NCBI GenBank assembly: GCA_017592665.1
Contig: JAGFNW010000027.1
Coordinates: 28,264 to 92,263, forward strand
DNA from: Streptosporangiaceae bacterium NEAU-GS5
Lineage (GTDB): Bacteria; Actinomycetota; Actinomycetes; Streptosporangiales; Streptosporangiaceae
Direction: 5' to 3'
DNA: 64,000 nt
How positions within the stretch are numbered: the stretch's first letter is position 1; each line of letters opens with the position of its first letter. The position numbers and the translations under genes were made by a program. The notes beneath the pieces were generated by a model. That model had not been told where the DNA came from. It did not search any database and saw nothing but the letters and a program-made list of their open reading frames with translations. Positions 2,247-23,317 of this stretch are shown one piece after another.

Positions 2247-3018
2247 CCTGGGCGCCGGGTCTTCCTCGGGTCAGCAGGCCGATCAGCAGCCCGGCGATGA
2301 AGCCGACGACGTGGGCCATGTAGGCCACCCCGCCCGCGGACGAGGTGGCGAGGCCCGCCGAGTAGGCCCACTGCAGCAGGAACCAGCTGCCGAGGACCAG
2401 CCAGGCCGGCAGCCTGATGGGGATGAAGAAGAAGAACGTGAGCAGGCTCCACACCCGGGCTCGCGGGAACAGCGCGAGGTAGGCGCCGAGGACGCCGGCG
2501 ATGGCGCCCGACGCGCCGACCAGCGTCTCCTGCGAGTCCGGCTGGAACAGCGCGAAGCCGTACGTGGCGACGTAGCCGCAGAACACGTAAAAGAGCAGGA
2601 ACACGAACCGGCCGTAGCGGTCTTCGACGTTGTTGCCGAAGATCAGCAGGAACAGCATGTTGCCGAGCAGGTGCAGCCAGCCGCCGTGAAGGAACATGGC
2701 GAACAGCACGGACAGGATGGGGATCTTGTCGTAGCCGGGCCGCCCGGCCTCGCATCCCACCTCGCCGGCGCGCGTCTCGGCCAGTTGGCCCGTGGCCACC
2801 CGGTTGAGCGGGTGGTTGGTGGTCAGCTCGCGGGGAATGGCCGCGTATTCGTCGTAGAAGGCGATCTGCTGGCAGACGCGCACCGCGTCGAGGGTGCCGG
2901 TGACCGTGGCGGGCGCGGCCGGAGTGATCAGGAAGACCACCACGTTGGCGGCGATCAGCAGGTAGGTCACCCACGGGGTGCGCCTCAGCGGGTTCTCGTC
3001 GTGCACAGGCAGGACCAA
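2215..3018 (-). CDS. rhomboid family intramembrane serine protease
   Basis: Multi-TM protein with GxSG catalytic motif ('GASGAIAGVLGAY') and downstream His ('AHVVGFIAG'). Confidence 0.85.
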   Translation of the reverse strand: MVLPVHDENPLRRTPWVTYLLIAANVVVFLITPAAPATVTGTLDAVRVCQQIAFYDEYAAIPRELTTNHPLNRVATGQLAETRAGEVGCEAGRPGYDKIPILSVLFAMFLHGGWLHLLGNMLFLLIFGNNVEDRYGRFVFLLFYVFCGYVATYGFALFQPDSQETLVGASGAIAGVLGAYLALFPRARVWSLLTFFFFIPIRLPAWLVLGSWFLLQWAYSAGLATSSAGGVAYMAHVVGFIAGLLIGLLTRGRPGAQVSRPTPPGWR

Positions 3019-14635: not shown

Positions 14636-15499
14636 CTAGAGGTAGCCCCAGGACTCGCACATGGGCTTCAGCTCCTCCGGCACCTCGGCGGCGTCCGGCA
14701 ACGGGCGGCCCGGCTGGACGGATCCGGTGCGGATCTTCTCGCGCCAGTCGCCGATGCCTTTGACGAACTCGCCGTGGTCGTGCCGGCCGTACTGGAGCAT
14801 CTCGGGCTCCCACGGCAAGCCGAGGTGCGCGCACAGGCGGCGCAGCTCCTCTTCGGGCCGCTCGGTCAGCGCCTCGTAGCTCAGGGTGATTCCGGGCGTC
14901 ATCCGCCGGGCGTCGTCCATGTATTTGCCGTACTGCGAGATGAGCCGGACCGCCTCTTCCATAGGACGCATTTCGGGATCGGCCTCGTGCCAGGACTGTG
15001 CGATCGACACCGGATGCCGCTGGAGATAGACGGGCCGGGCGTCCGGCCAGCACGTGGAGATCCGGAGCCAGGCGAAGACGTTGCTCGGCGTCTTCTCGAC
15101 CAGGACGCGCTTGCCGCTGCGGGCCAGTTCGCGGTGGAGCATCCGGTCCCAGAGGATGTGCTCGACGTCGCTGTGGTTGTGCCCCAGCGCGGCCAGCGCC
15201 TGCTGCAGGGGGTCGGTCGGCAGGTTCACCGTCATCCGCCGGAAGTGGGTCTCGTGCGGGGCGTGGATCCACGAGTGGCTGTTCAGCAGGACCCGGAGCA
15301 GTGTCGACCCGGATCGTACGGGGGCCAGCACGAAGACGGGGGCGCGCAACAGGCGGTCATCACGCTCGGCCGGAGGCCGCATCTTGTCGCCCGGCATGCG
15401 TGGCGGAAGAAGCGGGACGGGGTTGCGTGGCCGGACTCGCTGAATGGAGTACCCAATCATCCCCTCAAGCGTGATATTGACCGCTTTCTTCCACTTCAT
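14636..15499 (-). CDS. sulfotransferase family protein
   Basis: PAPS 5'-phosphosulfate-binding loop 'VFVLAPVRSGSTLL' and 3'-PB region 'RHPVSIAQSW'. Start uncertain: ATG 15499 (MKWKK), 15397 or 15382. An AT-rich patch at 15420-15540 looks like the promoter. Confidence 0.7.
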   Translation of the reverse strand: MKWKKAVNITLEGMIGYSIQRVRPRNPVPLLPPRMPGDKMRPPAERDDRLLRAPVFVLAPVRSGSTLLRVLLNSHSWIHAPHETHFRRMTVNLPTDPLQQALAALGHNHSDVEHILWDRMLHRELARSGKRVLVEKTPSNVFAWLRISTCWPDARPVYLQRHPVSIAQSWHEADPEMRPMEEAVRLISQYGKYMDDARRMTPGITLSYEALTERPEEELRRLCAHLGLPWEPEMLQYGRHDHGEFVKGIGDWREKIRTGSVQPGRPLPDAAEVPEELKPMCESWGYL

Positions 15500-15760
15500 G
15501 CGGGTGAAGGGTAGTAAGACCTGGTAAAGGGGACGTGAACTGCGCTTGGGAAACCCGTGAGACCTGCCAGAGGGAGTCCTGAGGACAGTATTGTGAGACG
15601 TGGCGACCGTCCGCGCCCAACCTCCGGCGACCCGCCCCAGCCGGGTCACCCTACGGAGGCAAAGGGAGGCTCACCTCTCGGCCGGGGTCGTCATTTCGGT
15701 CGATCGCGCGCCCGCCGCACGGTCGCTGGGGGATCCGCGGCTGGGACGCGGGAGACGATC

Positions 15761-16873
15761 ATGACAAAGCAGGCCGACTTCAAGCGACGCGTGCGCGCCC
15801 GCATGGCCAAGACCGGCGAGTCCTACTCGGCCGCCCGCAGCATGCTGCTGGCCGAGCACCCGGGCCTGACGCCCGCAGACTCCCCGCTCGACTGGATGCC
15901 CGAGGCGCTGCACATCAGCAACGGCGACGCCACCGACGTGCCGGGCACGGGGCTCGCGACCCGGCTGATCTACTGGCGCGACATCCTGCACGAAGGGCCC
16001 GTGCCCGAGGTCCCGGCCGCCGAGCTGCGCCAGATCAGGGTCGACTACCTCACCCGCTTCGAGAGCGCCGAGCGCGACGTGACCCTGCGCCAGTTCACCG
16101 AGCGCGACCAGGCCGTCGAGGCCAATCGCGCCGGAGAGTACGTCCTGTGGTTCGAGGCCGACCTCTACGACCAGCTGCAGATCGCCGAACTCCTGGCCCG
16201 CGTGGCCGGTCTTGGCGTGCCGGCCGAGCACATCACGTTGATCTGCATTGGCGAGCACGCGGGCATCGCCCGCTTCGGCGGGCTCGGCGAGCTGACCGCC
16301 GACCAGCTGCGCGAACTGCCCAACACGAACGCGTGCGCCCGGCTGACCTCGGCCGCGCTCGAGCTGGCCACCCGCGCCTGGGCCGCCTTCCGCGCGCCCA
16401 CCCCGGAGGGCCTGCCGGCCATCGCCGCCGCGCGCCTCGGCGAGCTGCGGTTCATGGGTGAGGCCTTCGACCGGCTCTGCCGCGAATATCCAGCCACGCG
16501 CGATGGCCTGTCGCTGACCGAGCGCCGGGTCCTGGCCGCCGTCGCCGACGGCGCGCCCAACGCCGGCACGGCATTCGTACGCGCCGGGGCCCGGGAGACC
16601 CGTCCCTACATGGGCGACCTCACGTGCTTCGGCCGGATGGAGCAGATGGCGGCCGGGCCGCACCCGCTGCTCGCCCTCGATCCGCCCGGCGGTCCCGTGG
16701 AGGGGGCGACGGGCCTGCGGCTGACCGAGGCCGGAGCGCGCGTGCTGGCCGGGCAGGCCGACCGGATCGCGCTCAACGGCATCGACCGCTGGATCGGCGG
16801 CGTCCACCTGCAGGGCCACGACGTGCCCTGGCGCTGGGACGACGGCACCGAAACCATCGTTCAAGTCCCATAA
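15761..16873 (+). CDS. DUF1835/DUF3658-like protein with a short N-terminal 'KRRVRARMAKTGESY' motif
   Basis: ATG at 15761 in frame with track ORF 15557..16873. No catalytic motif recognised. Domain assignment is from memory of family architecture only. Confidence 0.55.
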   Translation: MTKQADFKRRVRARMAKTGESYSAARSMLLAEHPGLTPADSPLDWMPEALHISNGDATDVPGTGLATRLIYWRDILHEGPVPEVPAAELRQIRVDYLTRFESAERDVTLRQFTERDQAVEANRAGEYVLWFEADLYDQLQIAELLARVAGLGVPAEHITLICIGEHAGIARFGGLGELTADQLRELPNTNACARLTSAALELATRAWAAFRAPTPEGLPAIAAARLGELRFMGEAFDRLCREYPATRDGLSLTERRVLAAVADGAPNAGTAFVRAGARETRPYMGDLTCFGRMEQMAAGPHPLLALDPPGGPVEGATGLRLTEAGARVLAGQADRIALNGIDRWIGGVHLQGHDVPWRWDDGTETIVQVP

Positions 16874-16883
16874 GCTCCCAAAC

Positions 16884-17720
16884 ATGGCATTGCACATGAA
16901 TGTCCAGTGGATCCACGGCTCACCATCGGCCAAACACAACACCGACCCGGACATCCAGGTCCACCCGTACGACGAGCGCACGCTCATCCTGCGCCAGAAC
17001 AAGGCCGTCAACTACGAGGCCCCGTTCATGTTCCTGCTGTTCGGCGACGAGCGGGCGGTGTTGATCGACACCGGCGCGACGGTCTCGGCCGACTACTTCC
17101 CGTTGCGGTCGACGGTCGACGATCTCATCGAGGAGTGGCTGGCCCGCAACCCGCGCGACGACTACCACCTCCTCGTGCTGCACACGCACGGGCATGGCGA
17201 TCACGTCGCGGGTGACGGCCAGTTCGCCGACCGGCCCCGGACGACCGTCGTGAGCGCCGGCCGCCCCTCGGCCTGGGCGTTCTTCGGATTCGCCGACAAC
17301 CAGGACGCGGTCGCCACGGTCGACCTTGGCGGCCGGGTCCTGGAGTGCCTGGCCACCCCCGGTCACCATGAGGCGGCCGTGACCTACTACGACCAGGCGA
17401 CCGGCCTGTTGTTCACCGGCGACACCGTCTATCGGGGCCGCCTCTACGTGGAGGACTGGCCGGCCTTCGCCCGTACCATCGACCGGATCGTCGCGTTCGC
17501 CGACGCGCGGCCGGTCGCCCACGTCCTCGGCTGCCATATCGAGATGACCATCACGCCGGGGATGGACTATCCGATCGGCACGACCTACCAGCCCGACGAG
17601 CCGCCGCTCGAGATGACCGTGGATCACCTCCGCGCCATCCAGGCGGCGGTCGAGGAGATCGGCGACCGCCCCGGCGTGCACGCCTACTCCGACTTCGTCA
17701 TCTGGAACCAGGACGGCTGA
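16884..17720 (+). CDS. MBL-fold metallo-hydrolase
   Basis: Zn-binding 'HTHGHGDH', with downstream 'TPGHH' and 'GCH' ligands. Confidence 0.85.
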   Translation: MALHMNVQWIHGSPSAKHNTDPDIQVHPYDERTLILRQNKAVNYEAPFMFLLFGDERAVLIDTGATVSADYFPLRSTVDDLIEEWLARNPRDDYHLLVLHTHGHGDHVAGDGQFADRPRTTVVSAGRPSAWAFFGFADNQDAVATVDLGGRVLECLATPGHHEAAVTYYDQATGLLFTGDTVYRGRLYVEDWPAFARTIDRIVAFADARPVAHVLGCHIEMTITPGMDYPIGTTYQPDEPPLEMTVDHLRAIQAAVEEIGDRPGVHAYSDFVIWNQDG

Positions 17721-18872
17721 TCACGCATGCCACATGGCGGCGAGCCGCCGGGTGGCGAGCCGCTGTGGAATGGCGCGGAGCAGCGCGTCGCGCAGCCACG
17801 CCGGGGCGCCGGTCTGCGACGTCAGCCGTGACTGACGGGCCGAGGCCCGCATCAGGCGGTTGGCGCGCGGCCGGCGCTCCGCGTCGTAGGCGAGCAGACG
17901 CTCGGCGACGTCGGCGGGCTCGGCCCCGGCCAGGTGGCGGGTGACCGCGGCCGCGTCCTCGAAGGCCTGGCTGGCGCCTTGGCCGAGATCGGGGGTCATG
18001 GCGTGCGCAGCGTCGCCGAGGAGCGCGATCCGGCCGACGGCGAACGAGGGCAGCGGCTCGGCCAGACAGGCGACCGCGTCAACGTAGATGTCGGCGACCG
18101 GCGTGGCCTCGATCAGCGCGGGCACCACGGGATGCCAGTCGGCCATCAACGACGACAGCCGCTGTCGCGCCTCGCCCGCTTCGGGCGGCGGCGCCGAGCC
18201 GAGGGCGGAGTCGGTGAACCAGTAGAGAACGTCGTCGCCCACCGGAAACAGGCCGAACATCGATCCGCTCCGCCGGTCGATGAGAATGCCGGCCAGGAGT
18301 TCGGTCACGTCCAGGCCGGGAGGGTTGGGCAGCATCCCGCGCAGGTCCAACCGGCCGACCTGGCGTAGCCCCGGATGGCCGGGGAACAGCCGGCCGCGCA
18401 GGCCGCTGGCGATGCCGTCGGCCACGATGACGGCGTCGGCCCTGGCGATGGCCCGGCCGTCGCTTGTCACCGTCACCCCGTCGGCGTCGGGCTCCAGCGC
18501 GTCGATCGGCGTCGCCGTGCGCACGCATTCGGCCGGCAGCGGGGCGCGCAGCGCCCGATGCAGCTCAGTCCGGCTCATCACGCTCACCGCCCCGACCGTC
18601 CGCTGCGCGTCAGCCACGTCGGTGACCAGCAGCGGCCGCCCGCGCCAGTCGCGCAGCCCGCCGCTGACGGCCGGCATGGCCTGATCCCGGACGTGATCGG
18701 CCAATCCCAGCGAATCGAGCGCCCGCACACCGTTGGGCATGATCACGATGGCCGTGCCGGCCTCCCGGAGCTCGGCCCCGCGCTCGCACAACGTCACCTC
18801 GTGCCCGGCGCGACGCAACCCGGCCGCCGCCGACACTCCACCGAGCCCGGCGCCCACGACGACGATTTTCAC
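17721..18872 (-). CDS. FAD-dependent monooxygenase (aromatic-ring hydroxylase family)
   Basis: GTG start gives 'VKIVVVGAGLGGVSAAAGL' (dinucleotide-binding fold) and a 'GDAAH' second FAD motif. The track ORF to 19799 is an upstream artefact. Confidence 0.85.
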   Translation of the reverse strand: MKIVVVGAGLGGVSAAAGLRRAGHEVTLCERGAELREAGTAIVIMPNGVRALDSLGLADHVRDQAMPAVSGGLRDWRGRPLLVTDVADAQRTVGAVSVMSRTELHRALRAPLPAECVRTATPIDALEPDADGVTVTSDGRAIARADAVIVADGIASGLRGRLFPGHPGLRQVGRLDLRGMLPNPPGLDVTELLAGILIDRRSGSMFGLFPVGDDVLYWFTDSALGSAPPPEAGEARQRLSSLMADWHPVVPALIEATPVADIYVDAVACLAEPLPSFAVGRIALLGDAAHAMTPDLGQGASQAFEDAAAVTRHLAGAEPADVAERLLAYDAERRPRANRLMRASARQSRLTSQTGAPAWLRDALLRAIPQRLATRRLAAMWHA

Positions 18873-18926
18873 GACCCCTCCATTCACTACGATCGTACTA
18901 GTATCGATGTAGTTTACGATGGCGGC
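18873..18926. promoter_or_regulatory. divergent promoter/operator between the FAD monooxygenase and TetR genes, with palindromes
   Basis: Lower-GC 54-bp spacer 'cattcactacgatcgtactagtatcgatgtagtttacgat'. It contains the perfect palindromes TACGATCGTA, ACTAGT and ATCGAT. Confidence 0.45.
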
Positions 18927-19523
18927 GTGCCGCCCACCAATCCGGCCCGGCGACGGGCTCTGACCGACGCCGCCATCGAGTTGGTGGCGGCATCGGGAGC
19001 GCACGGATTGACCCATCGCGCGGTCGAGCAGGCCGCCGGGCTGCCGACCGGGACCGCCTCGAACTACTACCGCAGCCGCGAGGCGCTGCTCGTGGCCACC
19101 GCGGAGCGCATCGTCGAACTGCACCTCGCCGACATGGAGCAGGCCGCCGACCGGCACGAAACGCCCGCGGATCTCGCCGGCCTGCTGACCGAGTCGCTGC
19201 TCACCGCGGCCACCACGCTCAGGACCCGCTATCTCGCGATCTTCGAGCTCCAGTTGGAGGCGACGCGGCGGCCGGCGCTCGCCTCGGCTCTCGCCGGGCT
19301 GCAGGACGCCTCCACGCGGTTCACCGTGGGCCACCACCAGGGCCTCGGCCTCGCCGTACCGCCGGAAAGAGTCCCCGTCCTGATCGCGCTCTACGGCGGC
19401 GCGCTCTTCACGCTGGTCACCGCACCTCCCGAGCACATCGGCAGGGAAGCGGTCGAGAGCATCGTCGATGCCATGATCCACGGCGCCCTGCCACAATCGA
19501 ACAATGGTCGGAGCCATCATTGA
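18927..19523 (+). CDS. TetR/AcrR family transcriptional regulator
   Basis: GTG at 18927. HTH 'LTHRAVEQAAGLPTGTASNYYRSREALL', size about 198 aa. Confidence 0.85.
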   Translation: MPPTNPARRRALTDAAIELVAASGAHGLTHRAVEQAAGLPTGTASNYYRSREALLVATAERIVELHLADMEQAADRHETPADLAGLLTESLLTAATTLRTRYLAIFELQLEATRRPALASALAGLQDASTRFTVGHHQGLGLAVPPERVPVLIALYGGALFTLVTAPPEHIGREAVESIVDAMIHGALPQSNNGRSHH

Positions 19524-20493
19524 CAGATTGCTGGCGTCGCCGGAGCCCGCGATCCGCTGGAAGGTCCGCGCACGCGTGCTGGGCGAGCCGGCCGACGCCC
19601 CGGAGATGACGGCGTTACGGGAAGAGGTCCGCGGCTCATCCCTCGTGCGGCGGCTCCTCGCGTCGTTCGGGGCGAGCCCGCGGCCCGGGGCGTACGCCAA
19701 ATGGCAGGGCGCGCACTGGACGCTCGCCGCGCTCGCCGACCTCGGCCACCCGCCGGGCGACCAGGCACTGCACCCGTTGCGCGAGCAGGTGCTCGCCACC
19801 TGGCTGGACGGGACGTACTACCAGGACGTGGAGGTCGCCACCAAGGCGGCCGTCTACCGGCGCCCCGGCGTGCCGGTCATGCGCGGCCGGCACCGCGCGC
19901 ACGCGTCCCAGCAGGGCAACGCACTGTGGTTCCTGCAGGTCCTCGGCCTGGCCGACGACCGCTGCGCGGCCCTGGCCGAGCGGCTCCTGCACTGGCAGTG
20001 GCCCGACGGCGGCTGGAACTGCGACCGCGACCCCGCCGCCGACACCTCGTCGTTCTGCGAAACGCTGCTGCCGATGCGTGGCCTGTGGGCATACGGGACG
20101 TCACCGGCGAAGGCCGCCGCCCGCGCGGCGGCCGAGGTCTTCCTCGTACGGCGGCTGGCCTACCGGGCGAGCACCGGCGAGCTCATCCGGGCCGATTTCG
20201 CCAAGCTGCACTATCCGCTGTACTGGCACTACGACATCCTCGGCGGCCTCAAGGGCATGCTCGACCTCGGGCTGCTGGGCGACCCGCGCTGCGCCGACGC
20301 CCTCGACCTGCTCGAATCAATGATGGTCGCCGACGGCTGGCCGGCCACCGCCCGTTTCTATCGCACCTCGGACGAGATCGCCCTGCATCACGACCGCGTC
20401 GACTGGGGCGGCACGAGCACGCGGCGCGCCAACCCCTGGATCACGGCGGACGCCCTGGCGGTCCTGCGCGCCGCGGGCCGCCTCACTGTGTGA
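19504..20493 (+). CDS. hypothetical protein, possibly alpha/alpha-toroid (prenyltransferase/terpene-cyclase-like repeats)
   Basis: Aromatic-rich repeats 'LHWQWPDGGWNCDRD' and 'YPLYWHYDILGG' resemble QW-type repeats. Overlaps the TetR stop by 20 nt. Weak assignment. Confidence 0.45.
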   Translation: MVGAIIDRLLASPEPAIRWKVRARVLGEPADAPEMTALREEVRGSSLVRRLLASFGASPRPGAYAKWQGAHWTLAALADLGHPPGDQALHPLREQVLATWLDGTYYQDVEVATKAAVYRRPGVPVMRGRHRAHASQQGNALWFLQVLGLADDRCAALAERLLHWQWPDGGWNCDRDPAADTSSFCETLLPMRGLWAYGTSPAKAAARAAAEVFLVRRLAYRASTGELIRADFAKLHYPLYWHYDILGGLKGMLDLGLLGDPRCADALDLLESMMVADGWPATARFYRTSDEIALHHDRVDWGGTSTRRANPWITADALAVLRAAGRLTV

Positions 20494-20968
20494 CCAGCCA
20501 CGCGCGCGCCTGATCGAGATGCGCGCCCGTCAGCCCGACCCCCGGATCGACCTTGACCAGCAGGAACTCCCCCACGCCTGGATGCTCGGCCAGATACTGC
20601 TGGTCGGCGGGCTGATGGGCGTCGTCGAACCAGACGAACGGCCGCCCCTTGACGTACGCGGCGACGGCGTACGCTTTGGGCTCCCTGCCGACCTCGATGA
20701 CCGGGAGATTCGGCAGGCCGATCCGCGGCCCGATCTCCTCGTTGGCCTTGTCCTCCCAGGTCGTGGCCCACACCAGCTGGGCGTCGGTGTCATGGGCCAA
20801 GGCGAGCAGCGCGCGGCCGTGCCGGCGGTTGAGATTCAGCCGGTAGGTCTCGCCGCCGACGGCCACCTCATGACGGCGGAACCCGCGAGAGCGGCGAAAG
20901 GGATTGAGCACGCCATCGACGTCGATGAGCGCGAGTGGAATGACATCCCGGTCGGCCACGGTCACCAC
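20483..20968 (-). CDS. HAD-like hydrolase family protein
   Basis: N-terminal HAD motif I 'IDVDGVLNPF', about 160 aa. Confidence 0.55.
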   Translation of the reverse strand: MVTVADRDVIPLALIDVDGVLNPFRRSRGFRRHEVAVGGETYRLNLNRRHGRALLALAHDTDAQLVWATTWEDKANEEIGPRIGLPNLPVIEVGREPKAYAVAAYVKGRPFVWFDDAHQPADQQYLAEHPGVGEFLLVKVDPGVGLTGAHLDQARAWLVTQ

Positions 20969-21402
20969 GCCAGTTTCGGCAGATTGACGACGATGGCCTC
21001 CTGACTCGAGCGCGCGATGACCACGACGGCCTCGGTGTCCGGGTCGGGGTTCTCCTCGCGGTGCGGCACGAACGGCGGGACGAAGATGTAGTCCCCCGGC
21101 TTGGTGTCGATCCGGATCTCCCGCGGCTCCTCACCCTCGACGTCGAGGAAGACGAACGACGGGGTGCCGCTCACGATGTAGATGGCCGTCTCGCTGTCGC
21201 CGTGGTGGTGGTTGGCCGACATCGTCGCCGGCGCGACGTGCGTCTGGCCCATCCAGAGCCGCGTCGAGCCCACGCTCGCCCCGCTGATGGCGGCCCGCCG
21301 GAACATGCCGGACGTCTGCGCCGTCTCGTCGTTGAGCCCGGCCGGCGCGATGTGGTGCAGCCGTCGGTGGAAGGGGTCCTGCGGCAGATGAAGCTCTGTC
21401 AT
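20962..21402 (-). CDS. cupin domain protein
   Basis: Cupin motifs 'HHHGDSETAIYIVSG' and 'GDYIFVPPFVPH'. ATG at 21402. An AT-rich promoter patch follows at 21403-21590. Confidence 0.75.
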   Translation of the reverse strand: MTELHLPQDPFHRRLHHIAPAGLNDETAQTSGMFRRAAISGASVGSTRLWMGQTHVAPATMSANHHHGDSETAIYIVSGTPSFVFLDVEGEEPREIRIDTKPGDYIFVPPFVPHREENPDPDTEAVVVIARSSQEAIVVNLPKLAW

Positions 21403-21593
21403 GTCTGCAGTATTAGCACTCTGGTCAGCCCGATATGGCATGAGGTTCAATGTGCGTACGGCGCGGTCCATCGCCGAGCCCTCAGGCCTGTCCCCAACCA
21501 GGCCATAAATGGGCGAAGGGGGGCATACTCCCGGGCTGAGACTCTGCTGAGACGTCACCGAGCCGGTGTTGGGGACGGCGGACGGAGACGCTC

Positions 21594-22187
21594 ATGCCAA
21601 GCAACAAGGATCTCAAGCGCCTGGTCCGGGAGCGGATGGCCGCCACGGGCGAGCTGTACACCCAGGCCCTCACCCACATCCTTCAGGAAGAACCGCTGCG
21701 ACCCCTTCCCTCGCCCTGGTTCCTCACCGGAAGCCGCTCGGACGAATACGAGATCGGCCTCGTCGAGCAGTCCGTAGTACGGCTCCGCCTGCGTGCCGGG
21801 GTCGAGCACGCGTCCGGGTTCGGCGCGCTGATGCAGAGCATCTCGGCCCGGCGTCACCTCGGCGGCCGGGTGCGGTTCGCGGCGCGGATGCGCGCCTACG
21901 AGGTCAGCACCTGGGCGGGCCTCTGGCTGCGGATCGACAGCCGCGACGAGGCGCTGGCCCTGGACAACATGCAGGATCGCCCGCTGCGCGGCACCGCCGA
22001 CTGGACGCTCATGGAGATCGTCCTGGAGGTGCCGGAAGAGGCCACCTCGCTGCACTTCGGTGCGCTGCTGACCGGGCCGGGCGCGATCGACCTCACCGAT
22101 CTCGAGCTCCACGCGACCGATCAGGAGATCACGACCCGCGAGTCGACCCTGCCCGAAGAGCCGCAGAACCTCACCTTCCAAGCCTGA
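21594..22187 (+). CDS. hypothetical protein with N-terminal 'KRLVRERMAATGELY' motif
   Basis: 197 aa, no recognised domain. The N-terminal 30 aa resemble the N-terminus of the protein at 15761. Confidence 0.5.
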   Translation: MPSNKDLKRLVRERMAATGELYTQALTHILQEEPLRPLPSPWFLTGSRSDEYEIGLVEQSVVRLRLRAGVEHASGFGALMQSISARRHLGGRVRFAARMRAYEVSTWAGLWLRIDSRDEALALDNMQDRPLRGTADWTLMEIVLEVPEEATSLHFGALLTGPGAIDLTDLELHATDQEITTRESTLPEEPQNLTFQA

Positions 22188-22234
22188 CGGCCTTGTAACC
22201 GCGCCGGGTCCCGCGGAACCCGGCGCGGTCGCGG

Positions 22235-23317
22235 CTAGAACACCACCACAGAGCGCAGCACGTCGCCGTGGTGCATCTTGGTGAACGCCGCCTCGACCTC
22301 GTCGAGCGCGATCGTCTCCGACACGAACGCTTCCAGGTCGAGCCGTCCCTGCCGGTAGAGGTCGATCAGCATCGGGAAGTCGCGCGTGGGCAGGCAGTCG
22401 CCGTACCAGGACGACTTCAGCGCCCCGCCACGGCCGAACACGTCCAGCAGCGGCAGCTCCAGCTTCATGTCCGGCGTCGGCACCCCGACGAGGACCACGG
22501 TGCCGGCCAGGTCGCGGGCGTAGAAGGCCTGCGTGTACGTCTCGGGGCGGCCCACCGCCTCCACCACCACATCGGCGCCGAATCCGCCGGTCAGCTCGCG
22601 GATCGCCTCGACCGGGTCGATCCGGGAGGAGTTGATCGTGTGCGTGGCGCCGAGGCTCCTGGCCCAGTCGAGCTTGCGGTCGTCGATGTCCACCGCGATG
22701 ATCTTGGCGGCGCCGGCCAGCCGGGCCCCGGCGACGGCCGCGTTGCCGACCCCGCCGCACCCGATCACCGCGACGCTGTCGCCCCTGCTCACCCCGCCGG
22801 TGTTCATGGCGGCGCCGAACCCGGCCATCACTCCACAGCCGAGCAGCCCGGCCACCGCCGGGCTCGCGTCGGCGTCCACCTTCGTGCACTGACCCGCGGC
22901 GACCAGCGTCTTCTCGACGAACGCCCCGATCCCCAGCGCCGGCGACAGCACGGTGCCGTCCTCAAGCGTCATCTTCTGCTTGGCGTTGTGGGTGGCGAAG
23001 CAGTACCAGGGACGGCCCCGCAGGCACGCGCGGCACTGCCCGCACACGGCCCGCCAGTTGAGGACCACGAAGTCACCCGGCTCCAGCCCGCTGACCCCCT
23101 CCCCCACGGCCTCGACCACCCCGGCCGCCTCGTGCCCCAGCAGGAACGGGAACTCGTCGTTGATGCCGCCTTCCCGGTAGTGCAGGTCGGTGTGGCAGAC
23201 CCCGCAGGCCTGCACCTGCACCACGGCCTCCCCCGGTCCTGGATCGGGGATCAGGATGGTCTCGATCGAGACGGGCTCTCCCTTGGCCTTGGCCACCACA
23301 CCGCGTACTCGCTGCAT
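22235..23317 (-). CDS. class III Zn-dependent alcohol dehydrogenase / mycothiol-dependent formaldehyde dehydrogenase
   Basis: 'CGVCHTDLH' catalytic Zn site, '[15 protein letters not shown]' structural Zn site, Rossmann '[12 protein letters not shown]'. 360 aa is typical of the actinobacterial S-(hydroxymethyl)mycothiol dehydrogenase. Confidence 0.85.

Follow-up and report, generated by a model that had tools for sequence, protein, structure and literature searches.

Two genes about 5.8 kb apart in a 64-kb stretch of contig JAGFNW010000027.1 of Streptosporangiaceae bacterium NEAU-GS5 (the window, by which we mean the whole stretch analyzed here) code for proteins that begin with the same short basic motif. 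Protein A is encoded by an open reading frame (ORF) with an ATG start at 15761-16873 (+, 370 aa plus stop), and consists of the motif, a Pro/Asp-rich linker and a DUF1835-like body. Protein B, which also starts at an ATG (21594-22187, +, 197 aa plus stop), is made of the motif, a short linker and a predicted beta-sandwich resembling carbohydrate-binding modules (CBM) and galactose-binding domains. The motif occupies codons 1-32 of both genes, at 15761-15856 (+; MTKQADFKRRVRARMAKTGESYSAARSMLLAE) in protein A and at 21594-21689 (+; MPSNKDLKRLVRERMAATGELYTQALTHILQE) in protein B, and is predicted to form a basic alpha-hairpin. The comparisons reported here show that it belongs to an expression cassette of two co-inherited halves, of which it is the protein one. 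The cassette is composed of a -10-type promoter box, a pseudoknotted leader RNA and an ORF beginning with the basic alpha-hairpin, and the two halves are almost never found apart.

The two N-terminal translations from which an earlier note on this DNA had proposed a shared motif are exact (15761-15850, +, MTKQADFKRRVRARMAKTGESYSAARSMLL; 21594-21683, +, MPSNKDLKRLVRERMAATGELYTQALTHIL), and the note was also right that they head otherwise unrelated proteins: BLASTP of full protein A against full protein B aligns residues 1-42 only (50% identity, E 1e-7), all remaining segments being at E>5. Six-frame scans of the window, by regular expression and by hidden Markov model, return these two copies and no third. 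Protein A is weakly DUF1835-like over residues 68-144 (profile positions 26-106; E 0.0017, under the Pfam cut-off), and its orthologues at 46 genome loci (L001-L046) have the same succession of motif, linker and DUF1835-like body. Protein B has no match in Pfam or NCBIfam, and is 100% identical to a hypothetical protein recorded for Streptosporangiaceae bacterium NEAU-GS5. Its body (residues 43-175) is confidently predicted as a beta-sandwich by AlphaFold2 (mean pLDDT 85.9, 54-sequence alignment), and a Foldseek search with the model recovers 4d0q (E 1.7e-7), as well as CBM4, CBM22 and CBM61. The corresponding family comprises proteins of ~200 aa in more than 120 clusters, and essentially all of the ~120 members listed carry the motif (99-100% query coverage). 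Some members bear the JGI label ‘AraC family transcriptional regulator’, to which the predicted fold gives no support. As its N-terminus is the basic hairpin and it has no recognisable signal peptide (no signal-peptide search was made), protein B may be cytoplasmic.

The motif is widely distributed beyond the window. A 34-column profile that combines the two window copies with 16 short homologues, searched against 1.84 billion representative proteins, yielded 3,944 cluster representatives at E<=1e-3 and 811 at E<=1e-10, a clearly significant similarity. Among the 150 best matches, the motif starts nearly always at residue 1, and where it does not, the start of the protein has been called too far upstream. 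Behind it, Pfam scans and all-against-all clustering distinguish at least 14-18 unrelated types of body, reached through a linker of variable length. These include DUF1835-like, DUF4287-like (often with an SRPBCC/AHSA1 tail), CN_hydrolase, BtrH_N+DUF4872, zf-C4_ClpX, Clp_N, APH, KH_2 and LRR bodies, a HicB-like fold, the protein-B family, and several bodies without any Pfam match. This range upholds the proposal that the motif is a portable N-terminal module. That it might be simply the known N-terminus of DUF1835 proteins can be dismissed, because the DUF1835 model (PF08874) starts beyond it (in P0151, for example, residues 38-92 match profile positions 1-60, and motif residues 1-32 lie outside), and it is present on other bodies as well. 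The peptide matches no Pfam or NCBIfam model of any kind, even at E<=10, a PDB sequence profile search with it came back empty, and there are zero copies in phage genomes. We also considered stand-alone mini-proteins of 35-70 aa and rejected them: the two that we examined at the DNA level are a DUF1835-type gene on a metagenome-assembled genome (MAG) contig that is frameshifted (L009, 2501-3400, a 39-aa call), and a gene cut off after 36 codons beside sequence that translates like a tRNA gene (L053, 2501-2611). Several other short homologues of this size come from contigs of ~1 kb or less.

Mis-called upstream starts of motif proteins carry recurring strings (...EAKGG.P..., ...REVHLSAG..VDRAPAA...) that correspond to translated leader, and the DNA upstream of the start codon must therefore itself be conserved. 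A genome scan for the motif gave at least 482 confirmed sites, the best 80 of which (loci L001-L080) belong mainly to Actinomycetota, and also to Gemmatimonadota, Myxococcota, Chloroflexota and Acidobacteriota. By blastn with the 300 nt upstream of protein A, ~48 loci of many genera share 80-93% identity over the 160 nt just 5' of the ATG, the first ~80 nt of which are recognisable at 72-77% in other phyla and before other bodies. In the two window copies, the conserved leader is ~135-160 nt long, begins beside a -10-like box and extends to the start codon. Its layout comprises four helices (P1-P4), two pseudoknots to downstream sequence (PK1 and PK2), one or two further hairpins, and the Shine-Dalgarno (SD) sequence.

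Concerning leader A (15600-15760, +), our covariance model (CM) R1 matches its 5' domain at 15600-15688 with 106 bits. Covariation supports P1 (15602-15605/15614-15617), P2 (15621-15625/15655-15659), P3 (15629-15634/15642-15647, closing the loop CCCCAGC at 15635-15641) and P4 (15664-15669/15674-15679), as well as PK2, in which the P3 loop pairs with GCUGGGG at 15725-15731. PK1 joins the P1 loop (15607-15612) to 15680-15685, with one mismatch in this copy. P5 (15701-15706/15720-15725) and P6 (15735-15739/15747-15751) are supported by compensatory variants in the alignment, and the SD sequence, GGGAGA, is at 15750-15755, all on the + strand. The P2 strand CCUCC (15621-15625; within CAACCUCC) is anti-SD-like and recalls the 3' end of 16S rRNA. 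It is paired to GGAGG, which is followed by a second SD-like sequence, GGGAGG (both within 15655-15669), ~95 nt upstream of the real SD and at the same positions in all subtypes. This arrangement might imitate an SD/anti-SD duplex, or serve as a standby or decoy site for the ribosome. Leader B (21458-21593, +), a copy outside the model seed, is matched by R1 at 21458-21541 (32.7 bits, E 3.8e-4 in 64 kb). It contains P1 (21460-21463/21472-21475), P2 (~21479-21481/21511-21513), P3 (21485-21490/21499-21504, with the loop UCCCCAAC at 21491-21498) and P4 (21518-21523/21528-21532), followed by the 3' strand of PK1 (GGGCUG, 21533-21538), the 3' strand of PK2 (GUUGGGGA, 21568-21575), a perfect complement of the 8-nt P3 loop, and the SD sequence GGAGA (21584-21588), again all on the + strand. 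In the whole window, R1 finds the leaders of both motif genes and nothing else that is credible.

A putative -10 hexamer, TATTGT (15589-15594, +), lies 13 nt 5' of the first paired base of leader A. Its counterpart in leader B, TTCAAT (21446-21451, +), is a weaker match 14 nt 5' of P1, and the same TTCAAT precedes the leader of the Nonomuraea orthologue L203. Over 154 distinct upstream regions, a TANNNT box peaks 10-14 nt 5' of P1 (110 regions; maximum at 13 nt) and is the only conserved element upstream of that helix, and Sinorhizobium copies have an additional TTGACG -35. From the position of the box and the Sinorhizobium -35, we infer that the transcript begins at P1 and that the leader is the entire 5' untranslated region (UTR), including that of protein A.

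These upstream sequences have consequences for annotation, as gene callers often extend motif ORFs upstream and translate leader RNA. This is the case for the public gene calls P0155, P0161, P0168, P0171, P0204, P0209, P0245 and P0284. In the ORF list of the window, protein A is extended up to a GTG at 15557 (15557-16873, +, 438 aa), which is translated leader, and the 54-aa ORF overlapping leader A (15600-15764, +) is likewise leader RNA translated.

The evidence for the leader structure is comparative. R1 describes the 5' domain (89 positions, 21 base pairs) and was seeded with 13 Actinomycetes-type sequences. Among the genome loci, 98.1% of the cells in P1-P4 are standard pairs, versus 41.1-67.2% in controls with slid partners, and compensatory changes occur in 18 of the 21 pairs, values not attained in any of 500 shuffles. 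The picture is similar in a second, independent set, made up of 96 metagenomic matches (97.5% paired, versus 37.8-60.7% in slid controls), with compensatory changes in all six pairs of P3 and in four of the six of P4, P1 and P2 being fixed in this set by the search pattern. As the CM does not model pseudoknots, the evidence for PK1 and PK2 is not biased by it. For PK2, a segment 35-45 nt upstream of the ATG is fully Watson-Crick complementary to the 7-nt P3 loop in 70 of 79 sequences; in the shuffled control, the mean is 2.4 such sequences and the maximum 7. The paired strands covary (CCCCAGC/GCUGGGG, CUCACGC/GCGUGAG, CCCACGC/GCGUGGG, CCCGCGC/GCGCGGG and CCCUGGC/GCCAGGG, with UCCCCAAC/GUUGGGGA in leader B). 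PK1, formed by the P1 loop with the six nt 3' of P4, reaches at least 5 nt of Watson-Crick pairing in 28 of 79 sequences versus 4.9 expected, again through covarying strands (CCGUCC/GGACGG, CGAUCC/GGAUCG, GCAUCC/GGAUGC, CGUCCC/GGGACG and CUGCC/GGCAG).

In the Actinomycetes-type 3' half, P5 adjoins the PK2 strand, and P6, which occurs in the compensatory variants CCGCG/CGCGG, GCGCG/CGCGC and CCACG/CGUGG, ends 0-2 nt into the SD. Both helices were read from compensatory variants in the alignment, and RNAalifold run on MAFFT alignments of this half gives P4 and a tiny hairpin only. In Solirubrobacterales-type leaders, PK2 is a loop-loop contact of the P3 loop with the loop of a downstream hairpin, and the 3' domains of the two types did not fit a single model. 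The positions that are constant across subtypes are P2 (CCUCC/GGAGG), the (C/U)A(A/G)A junction and the G-rich start of P4, and the SD-like or anti-SD-like sequences CCUCC, GGAGG and GGGAGG all lie inside the leader core. The minimum-free-energy fold of leader A swaps P1 for a long-range helix that has no covariation support. We also considered a long-range pairing of the 5' strand of P1 with CGGUCGC beside PK2, and dropped it because its central position shows no covariation. Searches of Rfam 15 with window positions 15000-22500 (E<=1) and with both leader types (E<=10) returned only noise. One such match, to EAV_LTH (20954-20998, -; 22 bits against a gathering score of 70, E 0.096), is almost certainly noise, and corresponds to a GC-rich hairpin inside or beside the ORF at 20483-20968.

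The coupling of leader and peptide holds in both directions. Starting from the motif, 79 of the 80 genome loci carry the leader (78 by R1, plus L056 by eye), and the R1 match ends ~70-80 nt before the ATG in these 78 loci as in both window genes; L074 has no leader within 190 nt. The leader is also present before four more genes of the protein-B family (L201-L204), in the same subtype as leader B, and before Clp_N and HicB-like genes, two S. meliloti plasmid genes and a Nonomuraea gerenzanensis gene. Starting from the RNA, metagenome contigs were scanned with a pattern that ignores the peptide (CGCCNNACCTCC...GGAGGYARAGG). Of the 120 matches, 101 are usable, and 96 of these are followed by the motif 81-109 nt downstream. 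The other 24 comprise 12 that are not R1 matches, and hence false positives, seven with less than 150 nt of contig left, and five decayed copies. Among the latter, L120 has suffered an internal deletion after MTKQAAFKRR that joins motif codon 10 to the C-terminal part of the body (372-960), L124 (2256-2343, +) keeps only ...KTGESYTVA, and the RNAs of L116, L175 and L192 are truncated or degenerate. Neither the RNA-only metagenome scan nor the R1 scans found an intact leader before a motif-less ORF. Moreover, a second R1 match in L014 (minus strand), found without use of the motif, precedes a BtrH_N-type motif ORF. Since the conserved leader, just 5' of the coordinates given in the earlier note, near-obligately precedes the motif, the portable unit is promoter, RNA and peptide together and not the peptide alone.

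The peptide half is selected as a peptide. In 173 distinct motif coding sequences, synonymous codons vary freely at invariant residues: V11 is coded by GTG (79), GTC (41), GTT (27) and GTA (18), S21 switches between TCN and AGC (TCG 63, TCC 45, AGC 39), R12 uses six different codons, and V11, R12 and R14 use 4-6 each. Between the two window copies themselves, 4 invariant residues show synonymous codon differences. This freedom refutes the idea that conservation of the peptide is a by-product of constraint on the RNA and, with the base-pair covariation of the leader, shows by comparison that RNA and peptide are each under selection of their own. Residues K8, V11, R12, R14, T18, G19, E20, Y22 and A25 are constant across all subtypes. 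The stretch 8-17 reads KRRVRARMAK, with K8, R12 and R14 invariant or nearly so in the 173 sequences, and the motif is a short, highly basic segment of the kind that defines arginine-rich motif (ARM) peptides.

The AlphaFold2 prediction, made for the protein B copy only, gives a helix at residues 4-18, a turn at T18-G19-E20, a second helix at 22-32, and then the linker. The placement of F7, V11 and M15 against Y22, A25 and L29 is compatible with a hydrophobic hairpin core, and K8, R9, R12, R14, K17 and R26, judging by the sequence, would make a conserved basic surface, from which we infer that the motif may bind nucleic acid. The two-helix part of the fold suggested in the earlier note is thus predicted, and its likening to a ribbon-helix-helix (RHH) is not: only 3 residues precede helix 1, and as the model has no N-terminal beta-strand, the motif is not a canonical RHH. 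RHH profiles do not match it either: Pfam searches with the full proteins (E<=1) and with six peptides alone (E<=10) return no such family.

Concerning its distribution, the cassette spans at least six phyla, being found in Actinomycetota, Alphaproteobacteria, Myxococcota, Gemmatimonadota, Chloroflexota and Acidobacteriota, and one partial motif protein is labelled Planctomycetota. Each body family has its characteristic subtype of RNA and of peptide. CN_hydrolase genes, for instance, combine the peptide RARAAKTGESYTAAL with a P4 of GGGACU/GUCUC, the DUF4287-type peptide of Solirubrobacterales is GGAGGUAAAGGUGGC, and that of the protein-B family is GGGCGAAGGGGGG. As subtypes track body families, the fusions are probably old, each cassette co-evolving with its body. 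A recent local duplication as the origin of the two window copies was accordingly rejected: they belong to different subtypes, and their leaders have no similarity detectable by blastn. Clustering of cassette genes is nevertheless hinted at by the window pair and by L014 (a Pilimelia sp. MAG, contig DASQDS010000505.1), in which two divergent complete cassettes (422-509, -, and 817-904, +) lie ~300 nt apart with different PK2 strands (CCCCAGC vs CCCACGC), one of them heading a DUF1835-type and the other a BtrH_N-type gene.

Plasmids of Sinorhizobium, Rhizobium, Phyllobacterium and Microvirga carry the cassette before carbon-nitrogen hydrolase genes, with a clear TTGACG -35 / -10 promoter and a leader of ~61% GC. 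One example is plasmid pB of S. meliloti LMB1 (L205, NZ_CP141214.1, 188535-189524). In pSmeSM11a (L206, NC_013545.1, near 136454), ATA replaces the ATG and the copy is unannotated; it may represent a pseudogene. In Nonomuraea gerenzanensis (NZ_LT559118.1), tblastn finds two motif matches, and one of them, L207, has the leader (R1, 94 bits); this 11.85-Mb replicon is listed as a plasmid in PLSDB and is evidently the chromosome.

What the two halves might do together can be approached from the fact that the peptide is the sole feature common to the downstream genes, which makes an RNA-peptide interaction the simplest reading. Under this hypothesis, the basic face of the hairpin (K8, R9, R12, R14, K17, R26) would recognise the leader, in its folded state, of the mRNA that encodes it. 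It could do so in cis, during translation, or in trans on any cassette mRNA of the cell. Binding would stabilise or remodel the pseudoknotted core just 5' of the ribosome-binding site, and the outcome would be autogenous control of translation or of mRNA stability, i.e. the logic of ribosomal-protein leaders turned into a transferable module. Such autogenous control through binding of the hairpin to its own leader is our best mechanistic guess, put forward tentatively and with a little less than even confidence. We are slightly more reserved about the general statement, that a self-recognising RNA-peptide module of ~270 bp, whose peptide binds the leader preceding it, has been placed on at least 14 protein families. 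Indirect support for mutual recognition may be seen in the near-obligate two-way coupling over unrelated bodies and several phyla, in the invariant basic residues, in the invariant unpaired or core RNA positions of all subtypes (CCUCC/GGAGG, (C/U)A(A/G)A, GG), and in the fixed distance of 35-45 nt between PK2 and the AUG.

Several observations weigh against this proposal. Single-sequence folding energies of the leaders are unremarkable for GC-rich DNA (z = -1.3 and -1.1), and the 3' strand of P6 covers just 1-2 nt of the SD, with no conserved switch identified. Co-variation of peptide and RNA is inseparable from shared descent: RNA and peptide subtypes are specific to each body family, and this confounds the test. 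Two motif genes, a KH_2 gene in L124 (minus strand, start near plus position 3007) and an LRR gene in L209 (275-1429), are preceded by diverged look-alike leaders that R1 does not score (cores GGUGAGGACAAGGG and GUGAGGCAAGAGG, respectively), and which may represent further RNA subtypes. It is also not obvious why such different proteins would need the same feedback, and the contiguity of RNA and peptide on the DNA could by itself hold both together in one regulon acting via a third factor. The KH_2 gene of L124 adjoins the decayed cassette at 2256-2343 (+).

A different reading takes the leader for a sensor of the riboswitch type, responding to a small molecule, to an ion, to temperature, or to some unrelated protein or sRNA that acts in trans, and the peptide for an independent tag: an anchor to the ribosome, the nucleoid or other RNA, a partner-binding or targeting helix, or a Clp degron. 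The two would then travel together through mere adjacency on a ~270 bp DNA segment serving one regulon. The RNA does have the hallmarks of an aptamer (it lies in the 5' UTR, its pseudoknots are compact and its junctions conserved), a portable N-terminal helix followed by a linker is typical of targeting peptides, and the bodies include the Clp adaptor-type zf-C4_ClpX and Clp_N and the RNA-binding KH_2. However, riboswitch regulons are normally united by a pathway, whereas here the peptide is the only common denominator; no peptide-less intact leader turned up in our scans, and neither an intrinsic terminator nor a clear SD-sequestering alternative fold was seen in the leaders. We regard the combination of sensor and independent tag as rather doubtful. 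Autogenous recognition might also be restricted to the act of translation, the nascent hairpin acting in cis on its own ribosome or leader to limit the rounds of translation per mRNA, in the manner of arrest peptides or of the tubulin MREI sequence. The motif is strictly at residue 1, a flexible linker of variable length always follows it, the leader is tethered nearby, and ~32 aa is close to the usually cited length of the ribosomal exit tunnel. Yet the N-terminal position would be a trivial outcome of cassette contiguity, and a predicted stable hairpin with a hydrophobic core is more suggestive of a folded domain than of an arrest peptide in contact with the tunnel, so that we consider control exclusively in cis improbable.

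The possibility put forward by the earlier note, that of a nucleic-acid-binding module like RHH, would make the peptide a minimal RHH- or helix-turn-helix (HTH)-like DNA-binding unit that represses its own promoter, part of the upstream DNA being its operator. On inspection of the sequence, the succession of helix, G-x-S turn and helix does resemble RHH helices A and B, and the ‘AraC family transcriptional regulator’ label given by JGI to a few protein-B family members would be in line with it. Compensatory pairs and covarying pseudoknots are nonetheless marks of an RNA and not of an operator, upstream of P1 nothing but the -10 box is conserved, and RHH or HTH profile matches and the beta-strand are lacking, which leaves this explanation very improbable. 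The peptide could, lastly, have no function of its own and be a translated extension of the regulatory RNA, conserved through nucleotide constraint. A linker leading to unrelated bodies would fit such a ‘junk’ extension, as would the contiguity of leader and coding start, but this is contradicted by the use of all synonymous codons at invariant residues, including the TCN/AGC switch at S21, and has in our view practically no chance of being correct.

The existence of the cassette thus rests on strong comparative evidence, and the mechanism that we propose for it is a hypothesis. Judging from the libraries searched, the leader is a new structured RNA class, absent from Rfam 15, and the peptide a new mini-domain, absent from Pfam, NCBIfam and PDB sequences; our literature searches found no description of either. 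If RNA and peptide work together, the cassette would be a case, undescribed in those libraries, in which a structured leader and a protein tag share their evolution and their transfer as a single unit that can be joined to any protein. Should it be a self-recognising module, any fused protein would gain built-in feedback or membership of a shared RNA-mediated regulon, and the cassette would represent a new type of control element for bacterial genes, as well as a ready part for synthetic biology. Even a conservative reading yields a widespread RNA class with two well-supported pseudoknots, an N-terminal mini-domain present in thousands of protein clusters, and a tractable regulon of mostly uncharacterised proteins (DUF1835, DUF4287, BtrH_N/DUF4872, CN_hydrolase). 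Direct testing is possible, because the cassette is present in cultivable Nonomuraea, Frankia and Dactylosporangium and on S. meliloti plasmids.

Among known systems, the autogenous operators of ribosomal proteins and of threonyl-tRNA synthetase (ThrRS) (the L20, S15, S8, L1 and L10 leaders; thrS) resemble the cassette in having a structured, often pseudoknotted leader directly 5' of the gene for the binder, which here is a proposed one, and in filling the whole 5' UTR beside the SD. They differ in that each has one specific binder and a leader that mimics its rRNA or tRNA site, whereas the proposed binder of the cassette is a 30-aa module on at least 14 unrelated proteins. ARM peptides (lambda N/boxB, HIV Tat/TAR, Rev/RRE) are, like the motif, short and basic, and N-terminal in lambda N, the cassette peptide having 5-6 K/R within 12 residues. 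These fold only on binding, and their targets are simple hairpins recognised in trans, in contrast to the predicted folded hairpin with a hydrophobic core, and to an RNA that is a leader of ~135-160 nt with two pseudoknots on the peptide's own mRNA. Rop/Rom of ColE1 is also an alpha-hairpin, and binds an RNA loop-loop (kissing) complex with a face of its helix 1, which recalls the loop-loop PK2 of Solirubrobacterales-type leaders. It is, however, an unfused protein of 63 aa that forms a four-helix-bundle dimer and acts in trans on antisense RNAs, and it has no sequence relationship to the motif.

RHH proteins (CopG/Arc/MetJ) share with the motif two short helices, a G-x-S/T-type turn and an N-terminal location on diverse proteins such as antitoxins, but their defining beta-strand is missing from the motif model, and the conserved partner in the cassette is an RNA structure instead of a DNA operator. 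The encapsulation peptides of bacterial microcompartments (BMC) are, like the motif, short helical N-terminal tags with a flexible linker on unrelated enzymes. Unlike it, they are amphipathic single helices with no associated RNA element, and no compartment genes are linked to the motif genes in the window context. Pseudoknotted translational riboswitches (preQ1-II/III, SAM-II/V, guanidine-III) resemble the leader as cis elements of the 5' UTR with covarying helices and pseudoknots that end near the SD, but the regulon of the cassette is not defined by a pathway, its downstream genes having only the N-terminal peptide in common. In function, the cassette is closest to the ribosomal-protein and ThrRS operators, ARM peptides and Rop, and in architecture to the pseudoknotted translational riboswitches, without being a member of any of these classes.

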